A stretch of DNA of 27,254 nt from a bacterium (lineage in GTDB: Bacteria > Zixibacteria > MSB-5A5 > GN15 > FEB-12), in the NCBI GenBank assembly GCA_043811375.1, contig JBDRNJ010000086.1:1-27254 (forward strand). Reading direction: 5' to 3'. Made by a program: the position numbers and the translations under genes. Position 1 is the stretch's first letter. Every line of letters starts with the position of its first letter. The notes beneath the pieces are model-generated. The model made no database searches. It worked only from the letters and a program-made list of their open reading frames with translations, and was not told the DNA's origin. Shown here piece by piece: positions 1-16,545 of this stretch.

Positions 1-3000
1 GGTATAATTATCACGGTCAACATCAATCGTGACGATGTCGTACATGTCAGCCGAATCAGTTTCGGTCACGACGTACTCCACATCACAGGCGTCACCGATC
101 CCGTCAATATCGGTGTCCTCCTGTCCGGGATTGTAAACGTATGGACAGTTGTCAAGTGTGTCATTGACACCGTCACCGTCGTAATCACCGGAGAGATTGA
201 GTAATATCATTACGTTTCCATTGCCATCCGATATTGCCAGGTCAAGGTTGCCGTTTCCATCAAGATCGGCTGCAGTAATATGATTCGGATAAACACCCAC
301 CGTCATACTAATCGTATCGTAAAAAGTGCCGTTGCCATAGTTAAAGAACACTTCCAGACCGTCAGCCTGATCAGTAAGAGCAGCCAGATCGAGAGCTCCG
401 TCACCATTGAGATCAGTCGCTGCCAGTGACTGGCCACTGTCCGCAGATAGGGGGTAGTCAGTTCTATCTCCCAAGAGGCCGTCACCATTACCGAACAGCA
501 CTGAAATGCTGCTGCTACCACCCATAAAATCAGTAAAGCTAACAGTAGCTACATCCACATTACCGTCACGATCAAAGTCGCCGCTGACCAGTTCCATGGG
601 ATGAGATCCGACCCCGTACAACGTATCCATGTCAGCCAATGGATCGATCATGCTGTCCCGTCCAAGGAACAGACCAATTATACTGTCCCCAAAGCTGATC
701 GCAGCCAAATCCATCAAGCCGTCATTATTGAAGTCAGCTCCTTCCAGATCGTAAGGACCGTCTATGAAAAGATAATAAGAACTTTCGGTAAAACCGCCGA
801 GTGTTGTGTTGAGCAATAGTCTTATAGAATCCATAGGACTACTGGTTACATTAAGACCTACCGCCAAGTCAATAAAAGCATCACCGTTGAAATCACATGC
901 TACCAACGACGCAACCGGGGCGCCAAGCATCATAACTGTATCGAGGCTGAAATTAAAGGATCCTGTACCGAGTAGTATTGAGACTTCATGGGATTGAGTG
1001 CCAATAGCCAGGTCCGGAATGGCATCGTTATTGAAGTCACCCATCGCCAGCGTAGTAGGGCTTTCCGATCCGACATACACCTGATTGGCAATTGCGAAGT
1101 TTCCGCCGCCAACGTTCTCAATGAGCGTGATCGAATCCATCACGTAGTCGATAGTGGCCAGATCGATATCCTGGTCACCGTCGAAGTCAGCGGAAAGAAT
1201 CTCTGAAGCGCTGGTACCAGCTTCCATCACAGTATCTAATGTGAAATTACCGCTACCACCATTGACCTCTACCGTAAATGTCCAGGTGTAACCGGCGGAC
1301 AGAGCGATCCCCTCGCTCGACTGTACGCCCCGCATTACCACCGCTGTCACCACTTCTCCCGGCGCGAAAGGATCATCGGGAACTAGGGAAACGGAGCGTG
1401 CACCCGGACTGTAACTAACCGTGCCGGCATGACGACCCGACTGGCTGCCGTAGACGACAAATGTGCTGTCATCGAAATGGCCGGGGTTCATGTCGGTGTT
1501 GAACGCCGCCGAGACGATAGTATTGACCGGGGCTGCCACTTCGTTGGCGTCAGGCGTGACGGCAATTACTTCCGGGACGGCGATATTGCGCATCACAATG
1601 ATCTTGCTGATGTCACAAATGGCCATATCCAAGTCATCGTCGCCGTCAAGATCAGCCATGACCGCATTAGGGTAACCGCCGCTGACGATGTCGCTACTGA
1701 TCGCCGTGGTGACAAACGAACCGAATCCGTTATTCTTCATAACCGACACATTCAGATTCCCGCCGGACTCGACGACGGTGCTGATATCGATGTCACCATC
1801 CCCGTCAACATCGTCCACTAATACTGGCCAGAAACCACCCCAGCCGCCCCGCCAGAAGTCTGTTCGCGACCCTAACTGACCGGTACCGTCGCCCAGCAGG
1901 ACTGAGACACTGTCTCCCCCGCAAAACACAGCCACATCGGCGTTTCCATCGCCGTTGAAGTCAGAGGCGGCGATTGTGTATGGGGTAGTGCCAGTACTGA
2001 ACGTGTCGACATCGGCGACAAAGGTGCCATCACCGTTGCCGGCCAACAGATAGATAATGTTATGGCCGTTTATGATACCGGTAATCAGGTCCATAGCGCC
2101 GTCGTTATTGAAGTCGGCAACGGCCAGCTTGTTGGACTGATATGGCCAGAGATTGTAAATGCTGTCGGTCGTAAACTGGCCGGTGCCATCGTTTAGCATG
2201 ATGATGACCTTCGAATTCTGGTCCGATACGGCGATGTCCGCAACGGCGTCACCGTCGAAATCGCAGACCAGTATGTCCTGCGGTTCACCACCGACAGGAT
2301 ACATGCTGTCGACCGAGAAGTTGCCGGCTCCATCGCCGAGCAGTATGGCCACTTCCTCGGGTCCGGTGTTGCCGCTGGCGATGTCGACCATCAGATCACC
2401 ATCGAAATCAGCGGTGGCGATGCAGACGGGAGTAGCCCCCCCGGCCGGCCAGGCGCCCAGGAGTGACAGTTCACCGAGCCCGTCATTTTCCAGAACGAAC
2501 AGCGAGTCCTCACTCATTCCCGCGGCCACCAGGTCGATACTGAAGGTGTCCTTGATATCGAGAGCCAGTATGTCACTAACCTGGTTCCAGGTTGGGTGGG
2601 AGTAGACAGAGTCAAGCTGGAAATACCCGCCCCCAAAGGCAGGTACCTCGGTAGTAAAGGACCAGACGTAGCCCTGTGACATGGGCAGTCCCTCCAGGGA
2701 CTGGCAAGTCTTGCTGATAACAGCGGTGACCTTTTCGCCCGGCCGGAATTCCGTATCCGGTGTCAGTGTGACGCCTCGAGAAGCAGTATCGTATGTAATT
2801 GCCCCCGGATGCGGTCCGCTCTGGCTTCCCCAGACAACAAAGCCGCCGAAGCTAAAGCTCCCGGAGTCCATGTCCACATTGAATTCGGCAGAAATCGACG
2901 TGCTGACCGGCACCGCCACTGCGTTAGCGTTAGGTGCGGTGGCGACCACCGCTGGCGGAATAGTATTCAGGCCCACAAAGGTCGGTATGATGGTCTTTAG

Positions 3001-4980
3001 TCCATTATCGTACTGGGAGAAAATCACAATATTGCTGGGATCAAATGTAGTGGTGTCAATCAGAATGTACTGCGTTTTCGATTGGTCAGGTGTCAGCGTG
3101 AACCAAGCTGAGGCAATCAGCCCGCTGTCGGGAGTAGTCACCGCCGAGGTGAAACGACCTATCCCCACCACAGCCTTGTTTGAATCGACAGCCGAAAACT
3201 TCCAGTCGGCTGTCGCGTATAGGGAGTTGACGAAACTGATTGAGTCACATATCAGAGCCGATGTAGAGCAGGAAAAAGAAAAGGGGAGCGATAATCCCGG
3301 GATCGTGTCAGCAGCATTGATGAATATGTCGACTCTGGCAGTAGAACTCCCAGGTAACACTGCAGTATTTCTAAATGACACCGTATCAGCGCTGGAAATG
3401 GGCAGCACCGAGTCCGGGTGTGGCGGGCAGTACGGCGCTGACGCAATCCGAAAGATATATTCGCTAAGATACTGCGCATCATGGTTGTTGACACCGAAGA
3501 TGCTGTCGACATCACCAGCCTCTATGAATGGCATGGGTGCTGATCCGCCCTGGTACAGGTAGTTAATAATGTAGATTATATCTATTATTTCAACCATTCC
3601 GGAGTAGTCCGCATCCCCGCAAATGATCTCTCCGTACTTGATAGTGACATAATCTGCCCCCGAGCCTGTATTGCGTGCCAGGCCGGTCACGACCACCGAG
3701 CCGTTCTTGGCCCGGGCGATATCGTTGCCGACATCGTCACCACTGACAGAGCCGTCATAGAGCTCAACCCACAATGAATCACCATTTGAGGCATCATACT
3801 GAATCGTAGTAATATCCAGGTCTCCCATAGCGCTACCGCTGTAGCCGGTTACCCAGACAACAAAGCCATCGGTGCACAAGGCAGTGCCCTGATCATGGGC
3901 GTCACCACTGCCGGCATACGTCCTTTCCCAAATGGGTGCGGCGCCAGAAGAGTCCATCTTGGTAACAAAGATGTCCTGGCCGGTAACAGCGCCCGTAGCA
4001 TAACCGGTTACGTAGATATACCCGAAACCATCTACAACCACATCCAGACCCATGTCTTCACCATTGGCCGCACCATCCTGTTGCTGCGCCCAGGCAAATG
4101 TTCCACCCGGATAGTACTTAACTGTGTAGACTTCGTAGTCATAGGTAGCTGACCAGTATCCTCCGGTCACAAACACATAGCCGCTGTCATCAACCGCTAT
4201 AGCCTTGGCGTAATCATTGCCGGAACTCCCCTCGCGTCTGACCCAGGCTGTGTCACCATTGGGCTTATATTTGATGGTAACGTAGTCCAGGAGTGAACCA
4301 CTTCCAAAACTCTCGCCGGTGACATATACGTTACCGCTGTCATCCACGGTCAGGTCGTTTACTCGATCCACCCCGCCACCGGGACCGGCGTAAGTCTTGG
4401 CCCACAGCTCATTGCCGGCAGTGTCGTATTTGATTGTCAGGAAATCATCATTAGTGAGGGTAGCCTCGGTGTAACCGGCGACATAGACGTTTCCGGAAGT
4501 ATCAATTGCTATCCTACGGGTAACGTCGGCTCCTCCCGCGACGGGCGACTCATTGTAAGATGCCGTCCAGACCACTGACCCATCGTGATCGTACTTGACC
4601 GTATATGACCCCAGACCGGGCGTTACGCCGAAAAGGACACCTGTCACGTAGACGTTGCCCGAATCATCAACCACCAGGTCATAGGCGTAATCACCCAGTG
4701 TGAAGCCTATTCTGCTTGACCACAGTGGTTCTCCGGTAACGGAAAGCGATCTGGTCAGCCAGTCGTCTAACCTGGCTCCACTCCAGTATACTGATCCAGT
4801 GATGTAAACACCACCGGCAGTGTCTACTGCGACAGCCATGGCGGAATCATCGCTGTTTCCCGGACCATTGAAGGTCCTTATCCACAGCGGATGGACACTC
4901 TGACCGAACGCCGAAACGGCGCCAAACAGGACCAGTGTTGAAAGACATAAAATCAGTGATTTCGTTAGCTGTCGACTCAT
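1..4980 (-). CDS. Giant secreted multidomain surface protein (3'-truncated by window edge, >=1660 aa): signal peptide, 8 SBBP repeats, dockerin-like, cohesin-like, Ig-like (Big_5), 7 FG-GAP, Big_5, 7 FG-GAP, TSP3 repeat, further FG-GAP
   Basis: Hand-translated: ATG at 4980 behind GAAGGAAGGA, no in-frame stop down to base 1. N-terminus MSRQLTKSLILCLSTLVLFGAVSAFGQ. Repeats such as LVVDDSGNVYVTG. Dockerin CGDADYSGMVEIIDIIYIINYLYQGGSAP (~3427-3621). Ig modules ending GYVWSFTT and GYTWTFTV. DFNGDGxxDL repeats. TSP3 DGDGVNDTLDNCPYVYNPGQEDTDIDGIGDACD near 85-190. Confidence 0.93.
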   Translation of the reverse strand, partial: MSRQLTKSLILCLSTLVLFGAVSAFGQSVHPLWIRTFNGPGNSDDSAMAVAVDTAGGVYITGSVYWSGARLDDWLTRSLSVTGEPLWSSRIGFTLGDYAYDLVVDDSGNVYVTGVLFGVTPGLGSYTVKYDHDGSVVWTASYNESPVAGGADVTRRIAIDTSGNVYVAGYTEATLTNDDFLTIKYDTAGNELWAKTYAGPGGGVDRVNDLTVDDSGNVYVTGESFGSGSLLDYVTIKYKPNGDTAWVRREGSSGNDYAKAIAVDDSGYVFVTGGYWSATYDYEVYTVKYYPGGTFAWAQQQDGAANGEDMGLDVVVDGFGYIYVTGYATGAVTGQDIFVTKMDSSGAAPIWERTYAGSGDAHDQGTALCTDGFVVWVTGYSGSAMGDLDITTIQYDASNGDSLWVELYDGSVSGDDVGNDIARAKNGSVVVTGLARNTGSGADYVTIKYGEIICGDADYSGMVEIIDIIYIINYLYQGGSAPMPFIEAGDVDSIFGVNNHDAQYLSEYIFRIASAPYCPPHPDSVLPISSADTVSFRNTAVLPGSSTARVDIFINAADTIPGLSLPFSFSCSTSALICDSISFVNSLYATADWKFSAVDSNKAVVGIGRFTSAVTTPDSGLIASAWFTLTPDQSKTQYILIDTTTFDPSNIVIFSQYDNGLKTIIPTFVGLNTIPPAVVATAPNANAVAVPVSTSISAEFNVDMDSGSFSFGGFVVWGSQSGPHPGAITYDTASRGVTLTPDTEFRPGEKVTAVISKTCQSLEGLPMSQGYVWSFTTEVPAFGGGYFQLDSVYSHPTWNQVSDILALDIKDTFSIDLVAAGMSEDSLFVLENDGLGELSLLGAWPAGGATPVCIATADFDGDLMVDIASGNTGPEEVAILLGDGAGNFSVDSMYPVGGEPQDILVCDFDGDAVADIAVSDQNSKVIIMLNDGTGQFTTDSIYNLWPYQSNKLAVADFNNDGAMDLITGIINGHNIIYLLAGNGDGTFVADVDTFSTGTTPYTIAASDFNGDGNADVAVFCGGDSVSVLLGDGTGQLGSRTDFWRGGWGGFWPVLVDDVDGDGDIDISTVVESGGNLNVSVMKNNGFGSFVTTAISSDIVSGGYPNAVMADLDGDDDLDMAICDISKIIVMRNIAVPEVIAVTPDANEVAAPVNTIVSAAFNTDMNPGHFDDSTFVVYGSQSGRHAGTVSYSPGARSVSLVPDDPFAPGEVVTAVVMRGVQSSEGIALSAGYTWTFTVEVNGGSGNFTLDTVMEAGTSASEILSADFDGDQDIDLATIDYVMDSITLIENVGGGNFAIANQVYVGSESPTTLAMGDFNNDAIPDLAIGTQSHEVSILLGTGSFNFSLDTVMMLGAPVASLVACDFNGDAFIDLAVGLNVTSSPMDSIRLLLNTTLGGFTESSYYLFIDGPYDLEGADFNNDGLMDLAAISFGDSIIGLFLGRDSMIDPLADMDTLYGVGSHPMELVSGDFDRDGNVDVATVSFTDFMGGSSSISVLFGNGDGLLGDRTDYPLSADSGQSLAATDLNGDGALDLAALTDQADGLEVFFNYGNGTFYDTISMTVGVYPNHITAADLDGNGNLDLAISDGNGNVMILLNLSGDYDGDGVNDTLDNCPYVYNPGQEDTDIDGIGDACDVEYVVTETDSADMYDIVTIDVDRDNYT

Positions 4981-5092
4981 AGTGTTGTCCTTCCTTCAGA
5001 GACTGATAGATCAATTGTTGATCTTATGATTCAAAGGCAGTACCAGTATACCCTGGTCGATCTCTTGGAGATCTAAGACCTGGATATTCAAT

Positions 5093-5153: not shown

Positions 5154-7538
5154 CTACAGATTGGATAACAGAGGATCCAGACCGACTTCTTGTTCCGTCG
5201 GTCCATCGTGGTGCTCATAAGACTCCTGCAAACAGACTCGTGCTCTCTCGTTGTCACCGAGGATGGCATATGCCCGGGCCATGCAATAATGGACTTCGCC
5301 ACTGTGAATCTCACCGGCTGCTACTTGCTGTAAGTTGCTAATAGCTTCATCCTTGTCTCCGAGGCCTGCGAGTGCCATAGCCCGGTGCACCAGCAAATTG
5401 GTATTCGTTTCCCCGTTGACACTTTGCAGGTCAATGGACTCCAGACACTGATCGAAAAACACCCTGGCTTGTTGCTCGTTCCCTTCATGTTTCTCCAGGA
5501 ACCCCAGATAAAACATGGCGATGAACGGGAAATGCCCGGCCTCAATAGCATCCCTGAAACTGGATCGAGCCGAATCATAATCCTTCAGTATCATGTGCAC
5601 ATAACCGGCATAATGTCTGGCATTGGGGTCACCGTCGTATTTAACCGCCTGCTGGAAGTTCTCCAGAGCCTGCTCTACCACACCCAGTTTGAGATAGACT
5701 GCTCCCAGGTTGTAGTAGGCCCGTCCGTAGTCCGGCCCCAACTCGATAGCTCTATGCAAGGTCGCTATGGCTACCGTGAGCTTGCGTGAATCCATATGAA
5801 TCAGGCTGATCAGTAATAGCGTCTCCAGGTCGGTGGGAGCCAGTTGTAGCGCTTTTTTAGCCCATGTCAATCCTTCACTGAGATTTCCCTCGGTTGCTTT
5901 CAGCCAGGCGATCGTTCGATAGCCCACGGCATACTTGGGATTATACTCGACCGCCTTAAGGAAAGCCGCCTCGGCCCGCTCACTGTCACCGGTAAACATG
6001 TAGAAACGTCCCAGCGAACGATGTGCCTCCGGCATTTGCGGTTCCATCTCCAGAGCCTTCTCGGCCTCCTCCCGAGCAGCGGCAATGCAATTGGAACTGC
6101 GATCATAGTAGGCCATGTACCGGAAAGCATAGACGTCCGATAACCCAGTGTGAGCCAGAGCGAATGATGGATCAATGTCCAATGCCTTGCCATACATTTC
6201 TTCAGCGAACTTAAGATCATCAGGACGATTGAACTGATAATAGTCGCGTCCCCGCAGGTAGAAGTCGTACGCTGAGACATCCGGAGCTACCATTTCTTCA
6301 GCTTCGATAGCGGCCGTGCCGGTTGCTTCAGCCAGAGCACCGGCAGCATCCTCGGCAGCCTTTGACAGCAGGGCAAACAAATCATCGGCTGATCCCTCAT
6401 ACTTGCGACTGGATACTACCTCCTCGCCACCGCCACCATATATGCCCAGTTGCAGGCGCATCCGCTCCTGCCACTTCATGAGCGACCCCGTCATGACGAA
6501 ATCAGAATGGCAGCGCTTGAATATCTCGTTGATATTGCGCGGTAGCGACGTCGACGGTTCCGCCGACACTACCAGGTCGGTACGGCGGTTCAACTCTCCA
6601 ATGACATCGTCAGTGAATCCCAGGCAGAAGTAATCCCATGATTTGTCACCGGAGAGGTTCTTCAGGTCAACCACCGTAACCGTTCGGCTCCTTCGGGATA
6701 TTCCCACCGCCATCAGTCCCGGCTGATCCGAAACCAGGTTGCGATCGATTGCTTCAATCACTTCGGTCATTGATGGCGGACGATCTTCGGCCTGCTTCTG
6801 CAACAGGTGGACAATCAGATCACACAACCACTCCGGCAGATCGGGATCAATCTCCTGAGGACCTACCGGGTCTTCATACAACAGAGCGTACATAACACTT
6901 GCCGTCTGATCCCCCTCGAACGGACGCCGGCCGGTGAACAACTCATACAGAACAATACCAAAGCTGAACAGGTCCGAGGAGTAACTGATCGGCTCAGCCG
7001 AGAGTTGTTCCGGTGACGCATAGGCGATAGTACCCTCGATCTCGCCGTAACTGTCGACAGAGTGACCGTGCTGAGTCGAGGCCAGACCAAAATCAAGAAT
7101 CTTGGGGTCGCCGTCAGTCGTAATACGGATGTTCTCGGGCTTCAGATCGCGGTGGATGACATCGCGAGCATGAGCGGCCTGAAGACCGGTACCGACCTTG
7201 CGGGCCAGACTCAATTTCTGCTCAACAGTCAGGTTATTACTCGCCTGCCTGAACTCTTCGCCCGTCACGAATTCATACGATATGAACGGACTATCGTCTA
7301 TCTCGGCATACTCCCAGACCTTGACGACGTATGGTGAGTCTATCTGAGCAGCTTTCTTGGCCTCATTGGCCAGTGAGCTACGGAAGTCGGCCGAGTCGGC
7401 CAGTTCTTCATTTATGACCTTAAGAGCTACCTGACGATCAAGCCGGGTGTCTATCGCCTTGTAGACCGTCCCCTGCGTACCCTGTCCCACGCATGAGAGC
7501 ACGTGGTATTGCCCGAAATGTGATCCGGGTGTCAACAC
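5154..7538 (-). CDS. Hanks-type Ser/Thr protein kinase with TolB-N-like middle domain and C-terminal TPR repeats
   Basis: Kinase motifs GQGTQGTVY, VALK, HRDLKPEN, DFG, GTIAYASPE, SDLFSFG. Middle segment VVDLKNLSGDKSWDYFCLGFTDD. TPRs such as ALDIDPSFALAHTGL and AYYNLGAVYLKLG. GTG start. Confidence 0.93.
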   Translation of the reverse strand: MLTPGSHFGQYHVLSCVGQGTQGTVYKAIDTRLDRQVALKVINEELADSADFRSSLANEAKKAAQIDSPYVVKVWEYAEIDDSPFISYEFVTGEEFRQASNNLTVEQKLSLARKVGTGLQAAHARDVIHRDLKPENIRITTDGDPKILDFGLASTQHGHSVDSYGEIEGTIAYASPEQLSAEPISYSSDLFSFGIVLYELFTGRRPFEGDQTASVMYALLYEDPVGPQEIDPDLPEWLCDLIVHLLQKQAEDRPPSMTEVIEAIDRNLVSDQPGLMAVGISRRSRTVTVVDLKNLSGDKSWDYFCLGFTDDVIGELNRRTDLVVSAEPSTSLPRNINEIFKRCHSDFVMTGSLMKWQERMRLQLGIYGGGGEEVVSSRKYEGSADDLFALLSKAAEDAAGALAEATGTAAIEAEEMVAPDVSAYDFYLRGRDYYQFNRPDDLKFAEEMYGKALDIDPSFALAHTGLSDVYAFRYMAYYDRSSNCIAAAREEAEKALEMEPQMPEAHRSLGRFYMFTGDSERAEAAFLKAVEYNPKYAVGYRTIAWLKATEGNLSEGLTWAKKALQLAPTDLETLLLISLIHMDSRKLTVAIATLHRAIELGPDYGRAYYNLGAVYLKLGVVEQALENFQQAVKYDGDPNARHYAGYVHMILKDYDSARSSFRDAIEAGHFPFIAMFYLGFLEKHEGNEQQARVFFDQCLESIDLQSVNGETNTNLLVHRAMALAGLGDKDEAISNLQQVAAGEIHSGEVHYCMARAYAILGDNERARVCLQESYEHHDGPTEQEVGLDPLLSNL

Positions 7539-7659: not shown

Positions 7660-8955
7660 GTGACCGAAGAACAGCTTTCTGAACTTGAACGATTGCGCTC
7701 CGCTGTTGCTGAACTTACCAGCCTGAACGAAATCGCAGGCAACATCAGCGCTTCCATGTCGGTGGAAAACATAACTGAAACCATAATCGACAGAAGTCTC
7801 AAACATATCGGTGCCAGTCAGGGAGCCGTCTTTCTCCTCAGCCGAGAACGAAGCAGTTCGGACCAGTTAAAGACATTTATCCGCAGGACCACCGGAACCC
7901 AGCGAGAAATGCCCATTCACCTCAACATGAATCTAACCGGGTGGATGATAAAACACAAGGAACTTCTCGTAATCAACTCACCCGCAACCGAAAATCCCTT
8001 CACGCGACTTGATCTGGAATCGCTGGGCATTAACTCCCTCCTGGCCGCGCCGCTGTTGACTCGCAACGGACTGATAGGTGTCTTGGCCATCTTCAACAAA
8101 GAGGGAGATCAGGGCTTTACCAGCCAGGATTGCCGGTTCCTTCAAATACTTGGCTCGCAGTGTTCACAGGTAATCGAAGCGGCTCGCCTGTATGACGAAG
8201 AAAAGAGGCTCATGATCCTGCGCGAAGAGCTGGAGATTGCACGTTCCATTCAGCAAAGCCTGCTGCCGGTACCGACTGAGGTGGGTGACGAGACAATCAT
8301 ATTCGGCTTCAACAGCCCGGCCCGTGAGGTGGGCGGTGATTTTTATGACATGGTGCTTCTCGACGATGATACGTTTTTCCTGTCGGTTGGTGACGTGGTC
8401 GGCAAGGGTGTGCCGGCGGCTTTGCTTATGTCCAACGCCCTGGCGGTGGAACGGTCGCACTTGAGCAATCAACAGACCTTCTCGGTGGCTTCGATGGCGA
8501 CCAACTTAAACCAGCTCATATTCCAATTCACTAAACCGGGTCAGTTCATAACCGCTTACTTTGGTATCCTCGACCGTCGCCGCGGCCGCCTTGAATATGT
8601 TAATGCCGGACACCCACCACCGGTGATTGCCAACGATGGCCAACTGGTGCCGTGTGATCACCATGCTGACGTCGTGCTGGGTGTACTGGACGGTTTTCAA
8701 TATCAATCGGCCACACTCCAACTCCCGCCTGACTCGACAATCTGTATCTTCTCCGATGGTGTTACCGAGGCGTTTAATGAAGCCGGCGAGGAGTTTGGCG
8801 AGCGGCGACTGATAAGTTATATAAGAAAGGCCGGTTCTGAGTCGGCCCGGACGATTTGTGACGGGCTCCTGGATGATCTGAAGCAGTTTCGTGGTGACGC
8901 CGAACAGTCCGACGACATCACTGCCGTCGTCATCAGGACGAACCCGGAATCTTAG
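7660..8955 (+). CDS. GAF domain + SpoIIE/PP2C (RsbU-like) protein phosphatase
   Basis: GAF segment SLLAAPLLTRNGLIGVLAIFNK. Linker ELEIARSIQQSLLP. PP2C motifs GGDFYD, VGDVVGKG, NAGH, FSDG, DDIT all intact. Confidence 0.93.
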   Translation: MTEEQLSELERLRSAVAELTSLNEIAGNISASMSVENITETIIDRSLKHIGASQGAVFLLSRERSSSDQLKTFIRRTTGTQREMPIHLNMNLTGWMIKHKELLVINSPATENPFTRLDLESLGINSLLAAPLLTRNGLIGVLAIFNKEGDQGFTSQDCRFLQILGSQCSQVIEAARLYDEEKRLMILREELEIARSIQQSLLPVPTEVGDETIIFGFNSPAREVGGDFYDMVLLDDDTFFLSVGDVVGKGVPAALLMSNALAVERSHLSNQQTFSVASMATNLNQLIFQFTKPGQFITAYFGILDRRRGRLEYVNAGHPPPVIANDGQLVPCDHHADVVLGVLDGFQYQSATLQLPPDSTICIFSDGVTEAFNEAGEEFGERRLISYIRKAGSESARTICDGLLDDLKQFRGDAEQSDDITAVVIRTNPES

Positions 8956-9493: not shown

Positions 9494-12049
9494 CTACTCG
9501 TTGGGGATCAGCAGGAAGTTGAGATTGCTGATGGCGGTGCCTCCACGCTGGGGTTGTACCTCAAGCTTGATCTGGGTCGGGTCTGACCGGGAATCGAGGA
9601 ACTCAAGATGCTGCGGATCGACATAGATCCGGTATTGGCCCGGTACCAACCCCAGATAAAAATATTCTCCGGAACTGAAAGTGGATACCTCGGTGACGGC
9701 GTCGGTGGCGTCGTTGATGATCATGATCTTGACCATACCGACACCGGCCAGTCCCTGTTCGGTTTGTTTGCGCACCATGCCGCTGACTTCGGTTACCACC
9801 ACCACCGCTACATCGATAGCCGTCACCATGTTGGGATTGCAGAAGACTTCGTAATTGTCAAAGGCCGGTTTGAGGGTGGGGTCATCCAGACCAAACTCGT
9901 CAACCTCCACCAGGTAGCGGTCATAGGCCCGCAGGCCATCGTAGTAGAAGCGCTCACCACGGGTGGTGGGTCGGGCACGACCGCCCTTGATGGTAGCCCT
10001 GATACCGGTCAGGTAAATCTCTCCCTCATCGACCAGGCCGTTGTAATTGTCGTCCGCGTACGGTCGCACAATCGCCGACCCGTAGCCGATGCCGTTGCGG
10101 CGGTCAAACCAGATTCGGTGTGCCTGTTGATCGTAGCGCACCGAGCCGCGCTGGGTTTGGGCCATGGAGGTATGTTCGCCAACGGAGACAACCCGGGTAG
10201 AAAAATCAGCAAAACCGGTCAGCAGGCGGAAAGATGCCGTAATCTGGTAGTTCCCGGCTATTTCATTGCGGTCGACACCGACACTAAGCTGGCCGACGCG
10301 AAAGAGTCGTCGGTTCCATTGGATGCCGTACCGGGAAAATTGATTGAGCGTGTGGTCATAAGTAGCGCGAAGCTGCGGTCGGAGGAACCTCAGAATATTC
10401 GGCATCACGAAAATTTCGCTGGTGATTTTGCTGTGGCTTCCGGCTGTGCTTTTTTTGATTACCGTTCTGCCCAGGTAAGTAATATGCAGCAACGGCAGCG
10501 ACGAGCTGGTGCCGTAGTTGAAGTTGATGGAACTAAAATCCCGGAACTTGTTAACCGAGGAACTGAAGCGTAAGCTATAGTAACGTCCACCGATAGGCAA
10601 CGGTGAGGATACTGCCAGGCGAGCCGAGTAAACCTGATGGGCTCGGTTACGGAATTCGTTTTCAAAGTAGCGCGTGAAGGAACCGTTGATACTTATCAAC
10701 GAGGGGCGATTAAAGGAGAAGGCTCCGGCGGCAGCGTAGCGAGGTGACAGAGAGGCGTTGGCCGTCAGATCGCCGGTCGCCTGCCAGGTGGCTTCGGCGG
10801 CAACGGTGGGCGGTTCCTTGTCCTGGGAGCCGAAAGGAAAATCGGTGCCGGCACCGAGAGTCAGTCGATTGCTGACACCGTAAAAACCATTGGCCTGACC
10901 GTAGACACGGTTTTCCTCGAAACCATTGTCGGCCACCCCGGCCGATACTGTGTACTCAAAAGTCTTCTCGGGAATCTGATTATAGGAGACACCGGCATAA
11001 CGGCGCTCGGTCCTTATTTCACCGTTGGGACCGTACAACTTGAGAATGATCTCGGTCGTGCCGTAATAGATGTCGACCTCGAAATGGTAATTTCCACTGA
11101 CGTCGGTTAACTGATAATCAACCAGGCGACTGCCGATCCACAGCTCAACCTCCCACCCATCGCCGACGTAGCCGTTGACATCGATTGTCTGGAAAATCCG
11201 GCGCGGTACCTGGGGCTGGTTGGTAACCGAGGCGCCTTTTAGACGCCGGGAGAGAAAACCGCCGGTAGTTACCTGGCCCAGGTTGATCTGGGTCAGATGG
11301 CGACTGTTGTCAAAGTAGTAGTGCCAACGGTAGGTCATGGCCCCCGGATCAAAGCCGGTTACGGAATTGCCGCCGCCGGAAACGCTCAGGTCGCCGGCCA
11401 GCACCATGGCGCCGAGGCCGAGGCCAAAGTGGTGGCCGCCGTCACCAAAAGGACTGCTGGACACCGCCCAGTCAACCACGCCAACGCCGAAATACGGTTC
11501 CTGACGCGGCAGGCTGCGAACGTTTCTGAGTGCCGTCTCCCGGGTCCGGAGTTTCTTTTGTGCCTGCTGACGTTTGAGCTTTTGATACGACGGCAGGCTT
11601 TCGTCAAGCTTTAGCCGAACTGTCAGTGATGAGAAATGGAATTTCGCCTGCAGGCCGAACAGTTCCTCAAAAAGGTCGACCTTGAGATACAACTCACCGG
11701 CAGAGACTGTGAAATTGGAGTCGGCCAGAGGGTGCCGGTCACCATCGATAGTAACCGTTCTGTCCATCAGGTTGATTTCGTAAGGACGGTCATTACTAAT
11801 GAAGAACCCGTAGAAGCGTCCGGCGGATGCGTCGGATGCGATGTTTATGTCCAGCAGGCGGAATATCTCGGTAACGGGAAGGAATACGTTCTGGTTGTCG
11901 TAAAGAACGTACAGGTCCTTCTGCAGCAGCCGGGGAATGTCAAAGCCAATGACGATCTCCTCAAAACCGGACTCCTCTGCGGCAACCGGTGCGATCACAC
12001 CGATAGCCAGAGTAGCGGATACGATCAGGATTGTGGTCAGTCGGACCAT
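9494..12049 (-). CDS. Fimbrial usher-like outer-membrane protein with C-terminal SdrD-B-like/prealbumin-fold domains
   Basis: Signal peptide, 851 aa, amphipathic beta-strands. Usher-like LGQVTTGGFLSRRLKGASVTN. Plug-like segment GWEVELWIGSRLVDYQ...GNYHFEVDIYYGTTEIILKLYGPNGE. C-terminal DDNYNGLVDEGE and GEYFYLGLVPGQYRI. Lies next to a chaperone and five pilins. Confidence 0.82.
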   Translation of the reverse strand: MVRLTTILIVSATLAIGVIAPVAAEESGFEEIVIGFDIPRLLQKDLYVLYDNQNVFLPVTEIFRLLDINIASDASAGRFYGFFISNDRPYEINLMDRTVTIDGDRHPLADSNFTVSAGELYLKVDLFEELFGLQAKFHFSSLTVRLKLDESLPSYQKLKRQQAQKKLRTRETALRNVRSLPRQEPYFGVGVVDWAVSSSPFGDGGHHFGLGLGAMVLAGDLSVSGGGNSVTGFDPGAMTYRWHYYFDNSRHLTQINLGQVTTGGFLSRRLKGASVTNQPQVPRRIFQTIDVNGYVGDGWEVELWIGSRLVDYQLTDVSGNYHFEVDIYYGTTEIILKLYGPNGEIRTERRYAGVSYNQIPEKTFEYTVSAGVADNGFEENRVYGQANGFYGVSNRLTLGAGTDFPFGSQDKEPPTVAAEATWQATGDLTANASLSPRYAAAGAFSFNRPSLISINGSFTRYFENEFRNRAHQVYSARLAVSSPLPIGGRYYSLRFSSSVNKFRDFSSINFNYGTSSSLPLLHITYLGRTVIKKSTAGSHSKITSEIFVMPNILRFLRPQLRATYDHTLNQFSRYGIQWNRRLFRVGQLSVGVDRNEIAGNYQITASFRLLTGFADFSTRVVSVGEHTSMAQTQRGSVRYDQQAHRIWFDRRNGIGYGSAIVRPYADDNYNGLVDEGEIYLTGIRATIKGGRARPTTRGERFYYDGLRAYDRYLVEVDEFGLDDPTLKPAFDNYEVFCNPNMVTAIDVAVVVVTEVSGMVRKQTEQGLAGVGMVKIMIINDATDAVTEVSTFSSGEYFYLGLVPGQYRIYVDPQHLEFLDSRSDPTQIKLEVQPQRGGTAISNLNFLLIPNE

Positions 12050-12098: not shown

Positions 12099-12974
12099 CT
12101 ATTCTACTGCCGCGACCAGTTCGATGGTATTACCGGGAATCATATCCTGCGGTTGAACATCGTTGCGCCCCTCGTTGGATATTCGTATCTGGACCTTGAA
12201 CGGCGGATGATATTTAGATTCACGGATGGGCAGATCAATACGCCTCAGCAGGTCGCGGTAAACTGCCATTTTAAGCAGATTACGAGAAACCTGACGATGA
12301 TCCCGGTCGAGAAGAGTGCATTCCAGCATACCCATATATGAGACGTTACCCAGGTTGGTCATATCGATCATCACTTCGACCAGGGAGTCGTGCAGTCTGG
12401 CCGTGGCGCTGTTGAGCTCCAGATTGCAGACCAGGTCACCCTGACGGTGCTTGAACATGATTGCCTGGCGTGAGACCATGTGCAACTGGGTGCCGATAGT
12501 GCCTTCCTCATCCAGCATTTTCACCGGTGGTGGGGCGGCCTTCTTGGAACTGATCATTACCCGGGCCCAGTATTCACCGTCCGGCAGTCCCTGAGGCGGG
12601 TGGGCCATTATCCTGATTGTCTGGCTTTCGTCCGGTTGGACAATGACGGCCCGTGGAAAAGCCTTGACCCAGCCCAGCGCCGAACGCGGATCGGTTACGG
12701 CGGAGTCTTGAAACCTGACGAACACATTGCCCAGGCTGTCGGAAGCCGGCAGGCCGAAGCTGAAATCGATAGTGACTTCCTGATCCTCGTTACCCTGGTT
12801 GACTACGGTTAAGCGGCCGGTTGGCTTCTTGTCGGATGTAAACACGATGGTTGGTGATACCAGTACACCGGCGATCGAATTGACTGCCAGCAGAAGCACC
12901 AAAACGACCGGCCACAGCAGTCTTGGTAAAACCTGGTGAGCCGGGGGTGTAATATGCCTGTCGGGTCCGTTCAT
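12099..12974 (-). CDS. Periplasmic pilus assembly chaperone (PapD-like/archaic type)
   Basis: Signal peptide then GVLVSPTIVF...LTVVNQG; WVKAFPRAVIVQPDESQTIRI; LPDGEYWARV; second Ig-like domain with MTNLGN. Confidence 0.82.
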   Translation of the reverse strand: MNGPDRHITPPAHQVLPRLLWPVVLVLLLAVNSIAGVLVSPTIVFTSDKKPTGRLTVVNQGNEDQEVTIDFSFGLPASDSLGNVFVRFQDSAVTDPRSALGWVKAFPRAVIVQPDESQTIRIMAHPPQGLPDGEYWARVMISSKKAAPPPVKMLDEEGTIGTQLHMVSRQAIMFKHRQGDLVCNLELNSATARLHDSLVEVMIDMTNLGNVSYMGMLECTLLDRDHRQVSRNLLKMAVYRDLLRRIDLPIRESKYHPPFKVQIRISNEGRNDVQPQDMIPGNTIELVAAVE

Positions 12975-13063: not shown

Positions 13064-13687
13064 TCAGGTACCGTTGTAAGATACGCTGAGCACTATGTCG
13101 GCATTGTAAGTGCCCGATTTCTGACTCACCGATGGTGTCACTTTGCCACCCAGATAAATCCTGGTGGTGCCGCTGCTGCCAATCACCGCAGCCGATGGAA
13201 GGTTGTATGGGTTCTGGTCGATCCAGCCGTTGGATGCGGCTACGGTCGATGGTGTCACCGTGGTGGTATCAACTGCCGCATCGCCGGCGCCGAAAATGAT
13301 CGGTATCCGATCGGAACCGTCACTCAAGGCCAGATAGGACGGCAGCGACAACTGTAAGGTAATCCCCGAACCGGATTGACCGGTGATACTGAATATGGCG
13401 GAGGAATCATCATCATTGTACCCGATTTCTCTGGGCACCCCCGCAAAGACGTTGCCGAAACTCAGGTCCTGGGTGGCGTTAACTGCCAGCGCGGTCAGGA
13501 CCGTGGCGGTAGCCGACCGGTCATCATAGTCCGATGATTGCACCAGCGACCGGTTGACCGGCAAGTTCAACAGCAGAACCACCAACGCTGTCGTCGGCAG
13601 CACTCTGCGGCCAGCCGTCCGAGCTGCCGTTTGTCGGCGGATGTCAGACTGTGGTTTCATCTGTTGGTAATTGTTCGTAAGAATCAT
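13064..13687 (-). CDS. Pilin subunit P5 (DUF4402/Csu-like); start may instead be ATG at 13660
   Basis: ATATVLTALAVNATQDLSFGNV; LPSYL; YLGGKVTP; C-terminal GTYNADIVLSVSYNGT. Paralog of the four neighbouring genes. Confidence 0.8.
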   Translation of the reverse strand: MILTNNYQQMKPQSDIRRQTAARTAGRRVLPTTALVVLLLNLPVNRSLVQSSDYDDRSATATVLTALAVNATQDLSFGNVFAGVPREIGYNDDDSSAIFSITGQSGSGITLQLSLPSYLALSDGSDRIPIIFGAGDAAVDTTTVTPSTVAASNGWIDQNPYNLPSAAVIGSSGTTRIYLGGKVTPSVSQKSGTYNADIVLSVSYNGT

Positions 13688-13707: not shown

Positions 13708-14271
13708 CTATATGCCGTTGTAGGCAACTGTCAGCACAATGTCGGCGCTGTAGTTACCCGCCTTCTGGTTTGCCGACGGCACCACTTTGCCGCCGAGGTA
13801 AACATCGGTTCCACTGCTGCCGATTATGGCCGCCGCCGGCAGGTTGCGGGGATCAACTCCCAGCCAGCCGCTGATCCCGGCATCGGTGGGATCATGAGCC
13901 GCGGTAGTATCGACCGAGGCTAACGTGCTGCCGAAAATTACCGGCATACGATCACTGTTGTCGCTGAGAGACATATACTCTGGCAAAAACAGCACCAGTT
14001 CAATACCAGCCTGGCTCTGACCGGTTATCTGAAAGACCGCCGCGTCGCTGCCGATAACCACCACGGTGGTCGGCACTCCCTGAAGGACATCGCCAAAATT
14101 CAGATCAGCCGACGATGTGACTGAAAGAGCGGTTTGTACTATGGCCTCAGCACCGCCCACCGCTACGTCCTGGGCGGTCGGTCCCGCGGGCAGGAGCATA
14201 GCACTTATGGCGGCGAGGCCGGCCACCCGTCTCACCAGGCGACACACTTCCAATGTAAGGCACCAGTTCAT
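13708..14271 (-). CDS. Pilin subunit P4 (DUF4402/Csu-like); start uncertain
   Basis: AEAIVQTALSVTSSADLNFGDV; LPEYM; YLGGKVVP; C-terminal GNYSADIVLTVAYNGI. Confidence 0.8.
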   Translation of the reverse strand: MNWCLTLEVCRLVRRVAGLAAISAMLLPAGPTAQDVAVGGAEAIVQTALSVTSSADLNFGDVLQGVPTTVVVIGSDAAVFQITGQSQAGIELVLFLPEYMSLSDNSDRMPVIFGSTLASVDTTAAHDPTDAGISGWLGVDPRNLPAAAIIGSSGTDVYLGGKVVPSANQKAGNYSADIVLTVAYNGI

Positions 14272-14343: not shown

Positions 14344-14614
14344 TCTCAAATTAAAGCCGGAAACAGACAAAGCGAAAGTTTTACAGTTATCAACGGGAGA
14401 GATCTCCAGGTTATAGCATTGATTCCGTCGGTAGGGGTTTTTGAAAAAGTCAAATTATCGTCATTGCCGGCGACAGCGCGGCAATCTCGTTGTGTGCGCG
14501 CGTATGTCCACATGCGCCGCTATCTACCGGCAGATGTGGATATCTGCCGGTCACAGGGAATTCATCAAACTTTGAGTCGGCGTAACCTGGTCGTGACGTC
14601 CAGCGACGATGGTG

Positions 14615-14651
14615 AAAAAAAACAGGGGAGCCGCCGGTGCGGTTCCCCTGT
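14615..14651 (-). terminator. Rho-independent terminator after pilin P3
   Basis: Minus strand ACAGGGGAACCGC-ACCG-GCGGCTCCCCTGT followed by a T run, 35 bp after the P3 stop codon. Confidence 0.8.
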
Positions 14652-14685
14652 AAATTCAATCGGGTGCTATCAATCGAAATGTCTC

Positions 14686-15264
14686 TTAGGCACCCTCGAA
14701 CCAGACAGTCAAAATGATTGTTGCGGTGTAGTCGGCGGCCGAAAGCTGGGTTGAGCTGGGAATGACAGTGCCGCCCAGGCCGATGTTACCGGTGGCCTCA
14801 GTCAGGGTCAGTGAACCGATTGCGTACGGATTCTTGGCCGTATAGGTGCCTAAGGAGAAGTCAGTATTAGTGACACCGGTGGGACAGTATGACGCGTCCG
14901 TATCTTGGAAGAAGACATCAATACGCTGTTTGACCGTGGTTGACCAGAGGTATTCCGGAAGTAGTAAGGCCACCTGGATGTTGTCGCCGGCGGAGCCAGC
15001 TACCGCCCACAGGCCCGATCCCCCGGCGCCGGCGCCGAGATCATCGGTAGCACTATCAATGGCCTTGGCGACGCCCATGTAGACGTTACCCCAGTCGAGG
15101 TCCTGTGTCTCAGTAATTGCCAGAGCCGTCAACACGGTTGCCGTGCAGGTGCTTTGAAAGGTGTCGTTGGCATCCAGGGAACTGCCAAACATTAGAATCA
15201 GGCCCACCGCGAACACCGCAAGCAACGAAGCCCAATGACTGCCCTTTTTGCTGATGATCTGCAT
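14686..15264 (-). CDS. Pilin subunit P3, candidate major shaft pilin (192 aa)
   Basis: ATG at 15264 with GAGGA RBS (track start 15327 is longer). Signal peptide; STCTATVLTALAITETQDLDWGNV; LPEYL; GLGGTVIP; DYTATIILTVWFEGA. Confidence 0.82.
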   Translation of the reverse strand: MQIISKKGSHWASLLAVFAVGLILMFGSSLDANDTFQSTCTATVLTALAITETQDLDWGNVYMGVAKAIDSATDDLGAGAGGSGLWAVAGSAGDNIQVALLLPEYLWSTTVKQRIDVFFQDTDASYCPTGVTNTDFSLGTYTAKNPYAIGSLTLTEATGNIGLGGTVIPSSTQLSAADYTATIILTVWFEGA

Positions 15265-15445: not shown

Positions 15446-15919
15446 TCAGTTGCCGGTGTAGGTTACTGTCAGGCGAATTGTGGCTGAGTAGCTGCCGGCT
15501 TTCTGTACCAGGCCGGGTACAATAGTCCCGCCCAGCCAGACTGTCAGGAGGCTGTCGGAACCGATCCGGTAAGTTATGGGACCATTTGGATTTAATCCAC
15601 TGGTGCTGGGGCTGCCCTGATCGGGAGGATCAGTAGAATCAACAGCACAACTGGTGCTGGAGAAAAAAAGTGGCATATTGGCGCCTGTCATGTAAAGATA
15701 TCCGGGGAGCATAAAATCAAGAGTTACCTCGGCTTCACCATCGCCGGAAATCGACCATTCGGCGGCATCAGTTGAACTGCTGGCAATCTCGCCGGGAACA
15801 CCGGGATAGATATTGCCAAAGACCAGATCCTGAGTTCCGCTAACAGTCTGACCGTACAGCCAATTGCCCGACCACAAGCAGGCCGGACCGAGCCACATGA
15901 GTATTGCCAGTCGTCTCAT
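15446..15919 (-). CDS. Pilin subunit P2 lacking the N-terminal extension (157 aa)
   Basis: ATG at 15919 behind AGGAGG. MRRLAILMWLG...LYG then QTVSGTQDLVFGNI; LPGYL; WLGGTIVP; GSYSATIRLTVTYTGN. Confidence 0.8.
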   Translation of the reverse strand: MRRLAILMWLGPACLWSGNWLYGQTVSGTQDLVFGNIYPGVPGEIASSSTDAAEWSISGDGEAEVTLDFMLPGYLYMTGANMPLFFSSTSCAVDSTDPPDQGSPSTSGLNPNGPITYRIGSDSLLTVWLGGTIVPGLVQKAGSYSATIRLTVTYTGN

Positions 15920-16017
15920 TATTGACCATGCCTCCTGTGCCGCCATGACTAAACAAAGTGGCCGGGCAGGTCAACAAATATCTGCGGTGAAGCCCCTGAG
16001 GCCGTCGTGTCACCAGA

Positions 16018-16545
16018 TCAACCTCCGGTGAGCGTCACGGTCAATTGTATACTGGCGGTGTATTCCCCGGCACCTTGGCTCATGATGGGACTGACCGAGC
16101 CTCCCAGCCAAACCGTCATAGAACCGGTACTGTTCAGGTTAACGGTAGAAACCGAATAAGGGTTCATAGAGACCGACGGGTTTGTCTGCGTGGCCAGGGC
16201 GCTGTTGGCATATGAGGCATCAGAACTGGAGAAGGTGATCGGCAGACTACTGGTGCCTGAACTGAGTGAGTCGGGCAAAGTAAAGTCCAACGTGACCTCC
16301 GCCCCGAAGCCGCCTGCGACTACAGTCCACTCACCGGCGGATCCGACCGCAATTTTCTCAACTGATTTATCAACGCCTGGAGTGACTATCCCAAAGTCCA
16401 GATCATTACTGCCTATCACCGTCATGGAAGCTACCACAGTGGCGCGAGCCTGAATTGTGCTGCTGACCTGGGCATCCATCTTCCGGGCAGGCAGCAAAAT
16501 CAACAGGGCGACAATCGACCACCGCAGCAGTAAAATTCTGTCCAC
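16018..16545 (-). CDS. Pilin subunit P1 (DUF4402/Csu-like)
   Basis: GTG start behind AAGGAGG. Signal peptide; QVSSTIQARATVVASMTVIGSNDLDFG; WLGGSVSP; GEYTASIQLTVTLTGG. Confidence 0.83.
   Translation of the reverse strand: MDRILLLRWSIVALLILLPARKMDAQVSSTIQARATVVASMTVIGSNDLDFGIVTPGVDKSVEKIAVGSAGEWTVVAGGFGAEVTLDFTLPDSLSSGTSSLPITFSSSDASYANSALATQTNPSVSMNPYSVSTVNLNSTGSMTVWLGGSVSPIMSQGAGEYTASIQLTVTLTGG

Follow-up and report, generated by a model that had tools for sequence, protein, structure and literature searches.

A predicted five-pilin chaperone-usher locus in Zixibacteria

The window, i.e. the whole stretch of 27,254 nt of a Zixibacteria contig that was analysed, carries a predicted chaperone-usher locus. 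Reading of the sequence and its open reading frames gives the minus-strand gene order P1-P2-P3-P4-P5-chaperone-usher, with the following features.

16018..16545, minus strand: P1, single-copy pilin of the class sister to P2, with its own type of donor strand, candidate adaptor (tree and census)
16426..16470, minus strand: predicted donor strand of P1, 15 aa (alignment and strand-matrix score)
15446..15919, minus strand: P2, DUF4402 pilin gene without a donor strand, candidate single-domain tip cap (PF14352, model and pilin fold)
15851..15919, minus strand: predicted signal peptide of P2, 23 aa ending in LYG (inferred from the sequence and the ortholog pattern)
15446..15850, minus strand: predicted mature acceptor-only domain of P2, 134 aa from QTVSG, plus the stop codon (structural alignment)
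14686..15264, minus strand: P3, extension-bearing pilin, candidate major subunit (ATG 15264 taken as the start on sequence grounds)
14612..14660, minus strand: terminator-like hairpin and U run that follow P3 within the operon (-24.3 kcal/mol, z -6.33)
13708..14271, minus strand: P4, shaft-class pilin with an extension (PF14352 E 7.1e-7, alignment and tree)
13064..13687, minus strand: P5, pilin of the shaft class whose extension is partly divergent, real start possibly downstream (Pfam and alignment)
12099..12974, minus strand: predicted PapD-like periplasmic chaperone, 291 aa (PapD_N matches of orthologs)
9494..12049, minus strand: predicted usher-like outer-membrane protein, 851 aa (predicted-structure match)

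All five pilins can be aligned with one another, and in this paralog alignment P2 lies in the range of 33-38% relative to the strand-bearing members. The PF14352 (DUF4402) cutoff of 25.2 bits is passed by P2 (29.6 bits, E 1.2e-6) and P4 (30.4 bits); P1 and P5 stay below it at 19.2 bits each, the Pfam search gave no PF14352 match for P3, and an NCBIfam search with the seven locus proteins returned zero matches. The hairpin behind P3 was equalled in stability by 0 of 200 shuffles and is missing from the listing of the consensus scan. The strength of this hairpin and its U run would favour P3 as the most expressed subunit here. The P3 of the window falls into a divergent five-member shaft group together with pilins of L035, L038 and L051, and it has one Cys in the donor strand and one in the body, so that a disulfide could form within or between subunits.

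The chaperone was assigned through its relatives: 36 of 47 aligned orthologs matched PapD_N at E<=0.05 (best 3.2e-5), and the copy in the window gave no PapD_N match. Four residues are strongly conserved in the alignment (P72 in 47/47, R103 in 45/47, Y204 in 47/47 and R235 in 47/47). Archaic-class chaperones are described as having a carboxylate anchor of Arg89, Arg174 and Tyr196 and an invariant Pro59 (PMC4654587), and the four residues are candidate counterparts of this set. Against PF00577 usher clusters the Atlas model of the usher-like protein reaches TM 0.54-0.55, with matches that begin at residue 171 and end at residues 800-845, and no Pfam usher match was obtained by sequence; a predicted-structure match of this kind without a sequence match suggests a divergent usher. 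Searched against PDB chains, the P1 and chaperone profiles yielded 0 sequence matches and the usher profile two, both at chance level.

Just past the usher, a Ser/Thr kinase with TPR repeats (5154-7538, minus strand) adjoins a GAF-SpoIIE phosphatase (7660-8955, plus strand); the pair is not conserved beside related loci. In many loci (e.g. L039, L045, L059 and L071) a secreted protein of ~515 aa is encoded upstream of P1 and transcribed divergently from it, and the shared C-terminal domain in which this protein ends also matches the first long frame of the window (1-4995, minus strand).

Absence of the donor strand in P2 and its relatives

P2 is an intact open reading frame on the minus strand that runs from an ATG at 15919 to a stop at 15446, with an AGGAGG motif 11 nt upstream of the start. 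The alternative in-frame ATG at 15946 would merely give a longer signal peptide. Signal cleavage is predicted at LYG|Q, before Gln24, and from the predicted mature start to the LxFG motif P2 has 8 residues compared with 23 in its paralogs. In the alignment, QTVSGTQDLVFG of P2 matches MTVIGSNDLDFG of P1, a segment that lies beyond the 15-residue extension of P1, and the profile alignment of the two begins at position 2 of P2 and position 17 of P1. The 15 residues in front of the Gln of the window P2 score -34 on both donor-strand matrices. On the matrices of their own classes P1 and P4 score 28.8 and 21.8, and the extensions of P3 and P5 fit the strand consensus weakly, with best scores of 6.0 and 13.9. 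The original prediction had aligned the pilins on DLxFG and assigned extensions of ~15 residues to P1, P3, P4 and P5, leaving P2 without a donor strand. The lack in P2 is borne out, and so are the extensions, with 23 residues before the motif in all four paralogs; the anchor itself is looser than proposed, as P3 reads DLDWG.

Earlier cleavage of P2 at LWS|G would gain only 6 residues, which are not conserved. The idea that P2 might be a lipoprotein, attached via GPAC, was rejected because the motif makes a poor lipobox and is not kept by orthologs.

The same start is shared by the relatives of P2. Of 150 database homologs, 148 have an LxFG motif that could be placed, and in 147 of these 148 a Gln stands 8-10 residues ahead of it (exactly 8 in 142). 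The two homologs without a located motif read LVYG and have the Gln in the same place. A, G, S or C precedes the Gln in 143/147, a share that is partly built in as the search pattern demanded a small residue at this position. None of the 148 matches the donor-strand pattern. Upstream of the Gln the best-kept position in P2 orthologs reaches at most 56%, as against 85-100% for the A-x-A-x-V that P1 and P3-5 hold.

These data bear on the trivial explanations for the missing strand, namely decay confined to one lineage, or an error in the called start or in the cleavage site. The cleavage site is indeed read from the sequence. However, the loss is common to 148/148 database homologs, to 48/48 P2-class rows of a set of related loci, from several families and with conserved bodies, and to 63/63 P2-class ORFs of a second, overlapping set (n=80), with the reservation that a missing motif by itself is no proof since the strand regex also misses 17 of 191 evaluable shaft rows. 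We give decay or miscalling next to no chance; orthologs keep the loss.

The first locus set comprises 49 loci including the window, taken from 50 regions of which two were repeats; two of its members (L059 and L062) were assigned to the P2 class by the Gln at -8 and the absent strand motif, overriding the hydrophobic-distance classifier. One strand-less paralog is present in 44 loci, two in 2 and none in 3. The two copies of L043 and L076 are tandem duplicates. Among the loci with none, L077 is truncated where its contig stops, L068 represents an additional cluster of a genome whose P2 lies at another place, and L057, from a genome that is 83% complete (G191), encodes a chaperone, an usher and two shaft pilins, with P1 and P2 not found. 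A further locus, L109, has the same layout as L057, with N gaps nearby. The expectation of exactly one extension-less paralog per homologous locus thus applies to 44/49 loci and fails for L043 and L076, with two, and for G191, with none.

At the level of genomes, the five-paralog profile was searched against 201 genomes of the phylum and matched in 85, mostly five times apiece, one match being marginal. The chaperone is present in 82/201 genomes and a P2-class gene in 79 (one copy in 77, two in 2). P2 accompanies the chaperone in 78 of 82 cases (76 single, 2 double). The four chaperone-bearing genomes without it are G103, whose orphan chaperone (L161:7680-8840) has neither pilin nor usher within 14 kb, G106 and G139, whose assemblies consist of 470 and 370 contigs, and G191. 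Such genome and locus counts speak for conservation and not for repeated origin because the kin are not independent.

Several arrangements of the locus stand apart. The tandem strand-less pairs (L043:3413-4280 and L076:3802-4666) belong to one genus and could be alternative tips. At L147:2714-3707 P2 is inverted, convergent with X (a gene described below) and split from the shaft genes, with no clear flanking inverted repeats. In-frame stops interrupt the usher at L056:7335-10038 and one shaft pilin of L047 (the third pilin), by sequencing error or decay. Outside the phylum, P2-like proteins are known as Atlas leads only: clusters of 153-154 aa, mostly from Gemmatimonadota, resemble P2 in features and length and may be strand-less caps. 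Loci of Bacteroidota and Fusobacteriota are also among those that the Atlas points to.

Fold of P2, pilin classes and gene X

The AlphaFold model of mature P2 has a pLDDT of 95.8, and its top Foldseek match is CsuA/B (E 8e-4). VIA structural alignments were run on Foldseek's own top chains, with the 50 best rows considered. Residue 1 of P2 falls on residue 16 of CsuA/B (Z 8.3, rmsd 2.6, 109-111 residues aligned), of FimG (Z 8.4, rmsd 2.8, 110 aligned) and of FimF, a position that in CsuA/B and FimG lies just past the donor strand. It likewise overlays the pilin-domain starts of the two-domain tip CsuE (residue 181; Z 8.6, rmsd 2.6, 101 aligned) and of CfaE (204), PapG (197) and FimH (161). Z scores of 6.4-8.6 overall are middling, those of 7-8.6 lying near the 'common' level of the tool, and speak for fold, not function. 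From the alignment of residue 1, P2 is predicted to be a pilin domain minus its donor strand: the model has an incomplete Ig-like pilin fold with chaperone-usher pilin domains as best matches, and the protein appears to consist of one pilin domain without an N-terminal extension, as would be expected of a tip cap.

Positions in the A and F strands of P2 hold the pilin pattern of the paralogs, and its C-terminal end is of the YTGN type, as in the paralogs. Other residues are specific to the P2 class (C68 in 90%, P76 in 96%, W89 in 79% and Y94 in 96%, with N at position 89 in the window). They raise the prospect that P2 may bind something, and could itself be an adhesin, rather than being inert. 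The description of P2 as a 'minimal' tip therefore fits its single domain and may undersell its conserved residues.

A tree of the pilin bodies was built by a quick method from 147 columns with the strand left out; it covers 218 of 221 bodies, the other three having been omitted as truncated, masked or interrupted. A branch with SH-aLRT 88 has all 48 strand-less rows on the same side, and one with 97 has 47 of them. The 40 P1 rows form their sister group (97), and both are separate from P3-5 (98). Many within-genome pairs occur among P3-5, as would be expected of shaft subunits. Donor strands fall into two classes that differ at position 6, where 95% of P1 have Ile and 88% of P3-5 have Gly. 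Mean body identity is 56% for P2, 54% for P1 and 47% for the shaft pilins; P2 is thus as conserved as P1.

P1 is single-copy in 77/201 genomes and masked in G119. The genome-wide census did not find it in G118, G061 and G196, all of which have P2, so P1 cannot be an obligatory partner of P2. In four genomes (G067, G185, G149 and G137) P1 lies outside the operon. Of the relocated copies (L033:10239-10685, minus strand, L165, L163 and L164), two are convergent behind the usher and the others are unlinked or on a different contig.

In 34 of the 46 P2-bearing loci an extra open reading frame, X, lies between P1 and P2, just upstream of P2. It is present in 33 of the 34 loci with a preceding gap of at least 480 nt, plus L061, and is absent from the 7 short-gap loci, the window included. 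Examples, besides 32 further loci, are:

L059:4206-4496, plus strand: X
L052:3446-3778, plus strand: X

X has a signal-like N-terminus, a P1-type strand, no LxFG, a short hypervariable body (17% mean identity between bodies) and a C-terminal hydrophobic strand. Its strand is closer to the P1 class in 33/33 comparisons, with an hhalign probability of 88 over 22 columns only. A Pfam search gave no credible match for X, and nothing above chance was detected in the window's genome (G000), where the candidate C10 was discarded because it has no signal peptide and is antisense to a long ORF. L031 proved a false X seed and was taken out of the set. A disulfide between P2 and X was also dismissed: P2 has one Cys in 42/48, but X has 0-6, and the Cys of P2 is kept where X is absent. 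By its sequence features, X would be a donor without a normal acceptor, which would fit a PapH/FimI-like terminator (PMC10673952), an adaptor or variable displayed cargo.

The classes just described might mean that P1, P2 and, where present, X make a short fibre or tip fibrillum of their own with the Ile-6 strand, apart from the Gly-6 fibre of P3-P5, and that P2 caps only the former. The bodies of P1 and P2 stand together against P3-5, the strands form two classes with that of X on the P1 side, P1 leaves the operon in four genomes, and G191 lacks P1 and P2 together. Yet nearly all genomes have one chaperone and no second cap gene, which would leave the P3-5 fibre uncapped, and G118 has P2 but not P1. 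We regard two separate fibres as quite improbable.

A candidate single-domain tip cap

In donor-strand exchange, a subunit with a groove but without a strand of its own has no place except the outermost one (PMC3112383). We consider P2 most likely to be a single-domain tip cap; the position follows from this logic, as originally argued, provided that P2 enters the fibre. P2 would be exported via Sec and cut before the Gln, and its groove would be filled by the chaperone. At the usher it would accept a strand and give none, and could only become the outermost subunit. The donor would most likely be P1, which is the single-copy sister group of P2 and has a strand class of its own, and P3-P5, duplicated within genomes, would build the shaft. 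As no two-domain adhesin was detected, adhesion may depend on the conserved residues of P2 or on the shaft, in the manner of a polyadhesive fibre.

The lack of an extra adhesin domain in P2 had also been predicted, and it extends to the surroundings of the gene. No conserved extra gene follows the usher in the 49 loci, the window's genome has five pilin-domain ORFs only, and among 8000 candidates a single longer homolog was found, the tandem pilin fusion P0151. A two-domain tip adhesin, a trait of the archaic class, was thus not found by these sequence searches; a very divergent one encoded elsewhere is conceivable.

In P0151, a single record, a few linker residues without a further signal peptide connect an Arg-rich strand-less domain to a P1-like strand, which another pilin domain follows. 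This layout suggests that a P1-type strand comes after a strand-less domain, although the P1 profile is the best scorer for both domains. When domain 1 was folded together with the strand, the strand lay outside the groove as helix or coil, with pLDDT 72 and 51 in the last blocks, a result that counts for little because no alignment rows cover the strand.

P2 could instead be a free or loosely attached acceptor, either a DraD-like surface protein or a periplasmic strand scavenger that limits polymerisation, and not a stable initiating cap. DraD/AfaD is a precedent in that its cleft is distorted, it can occur unbound and Dr fimbriae can begin to form without it (PMC3112383); G191 has chaperone, usher and shaft pilins without P2, and the fold of P0151, with its strand uncovered by alignment rows, showed no groove insertion. 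Against this, P2 retains the pilin pattern at its A and F strand positions and the YTGN-type end, and it is near-universal and mostly single-copy wherever the chaperone exists. A free acceptor is in our view unlikely. The single-domain cap remains our preferred reading, and it does not imply the 'initiator' of the original prediction: according to the cited article DraD/AfaD has no donor strand, is placed only at the tip and is dispensable for initiation (PMC3112383).

Nor do known tip subunits all carry an extra adhesin domain, as had been stated. AggB and AafB of AAF/I and AAF/II are described as single minor capping subunits without an extension, with AfaD/DraD and SefD as similar tips (PMC5029526), and SafD caps SafA (PMC5700814). 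The FGL caps AggB, AafB and HdaB (AAF), AfaD/DraD (Afa/Dr), SafD (Saf) and SefD (SEF14) place one Ig-like pilin domain at the tip, as P2 would; the absence of an extension is stated for AggB/AafB and DraD/AfaD, while HdaB, SefD and SafD are described as tip or capping subunits. The concept of a strand-less single-domain cap is thus already published (AggB, AafB, HdaB and AfaD/DraD). Unlike these caps, which are known from enteric pathogens (E. coli and Salmonella), P2 is DUF4402-like, has three to five strand-bearing subunits as close paralogs, among them a P1 class of its own kind, and belongs to an uncultured environmental phylum. No FGL cap is among its 50 best structural rows, no AfaD-type Pfam match was found in P2 and AfaD-like invasins are missing from the structural matches listed. 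Judged from genes and model, P2 would work like the FGL caps by analogy, though not necessarily as a member of their family.

By fold the closest relatives are in the Csu (CsuA/B, CsuC, CsuE) and CupE (CupE1-6) systems, which provide the best matches of P2 and, like this locus, have paralogous pilins followed by chaperone and usher. The tips CsuE and CupE6, however, are built of two Ig-like domains, with the CupE6 gene placed behind that of the usher (PMC10104325); no such gene was found here. In P and type 1 pili, subunit order is set by the match of strand and groove, which offers a template for reading P1 as an adaptor and X as a terminator (PMC10673952). Points of difference are the two-domain adhesins PapG and FimH and the full set of six strands in the pilins PapH and FimI, X being far shorter and hypervariable. 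Archaeal tafi (PMC11821415) were set aside as a comparison because the mechanism described there differs. Among open-access papers we found nothing on DUF4402 or this locus, and nothing on chaperone-usher pili in Zixibacteria by title or abstract start. New are the cap design on a Csu-like fold, the two donor-strand classes and the mirror-image gene X in 34/46 related loci.

Taken further, P2 and X may be half-subunits at both ends of a Csu-like pilus with a two-letter strand code, in which P2 takes the Ile-6 strand of P1 and X, with a strand of the same type, ends the tip fibrillum or the pilus. We offer this as a speculation that we ourselves think doubtful. The terminator of archaic pili is, according to PMC10104325, still to be found; if the speculation is true, X would supply non-classical chaperone-usher systems with a terminator, of which that article regards none as yet established.

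As a cap, P2 would assign the unannotated DUF4402 to a definite structural part of a pilus, one carried by ~40% (82/201) of the sampled genomes of the phylum. The single-domain cap, until now a feature of FGL fibres of enteric pathogens, would also occur with Csu-like pilins, whose characterised relatives have two-domain adhesins. The small kit of P2 cap, P1, X and shaft subunits, with its two strand classes, would suit in vitro tests of strand-set subunit order as well as tests for terminators in non-classical pili.
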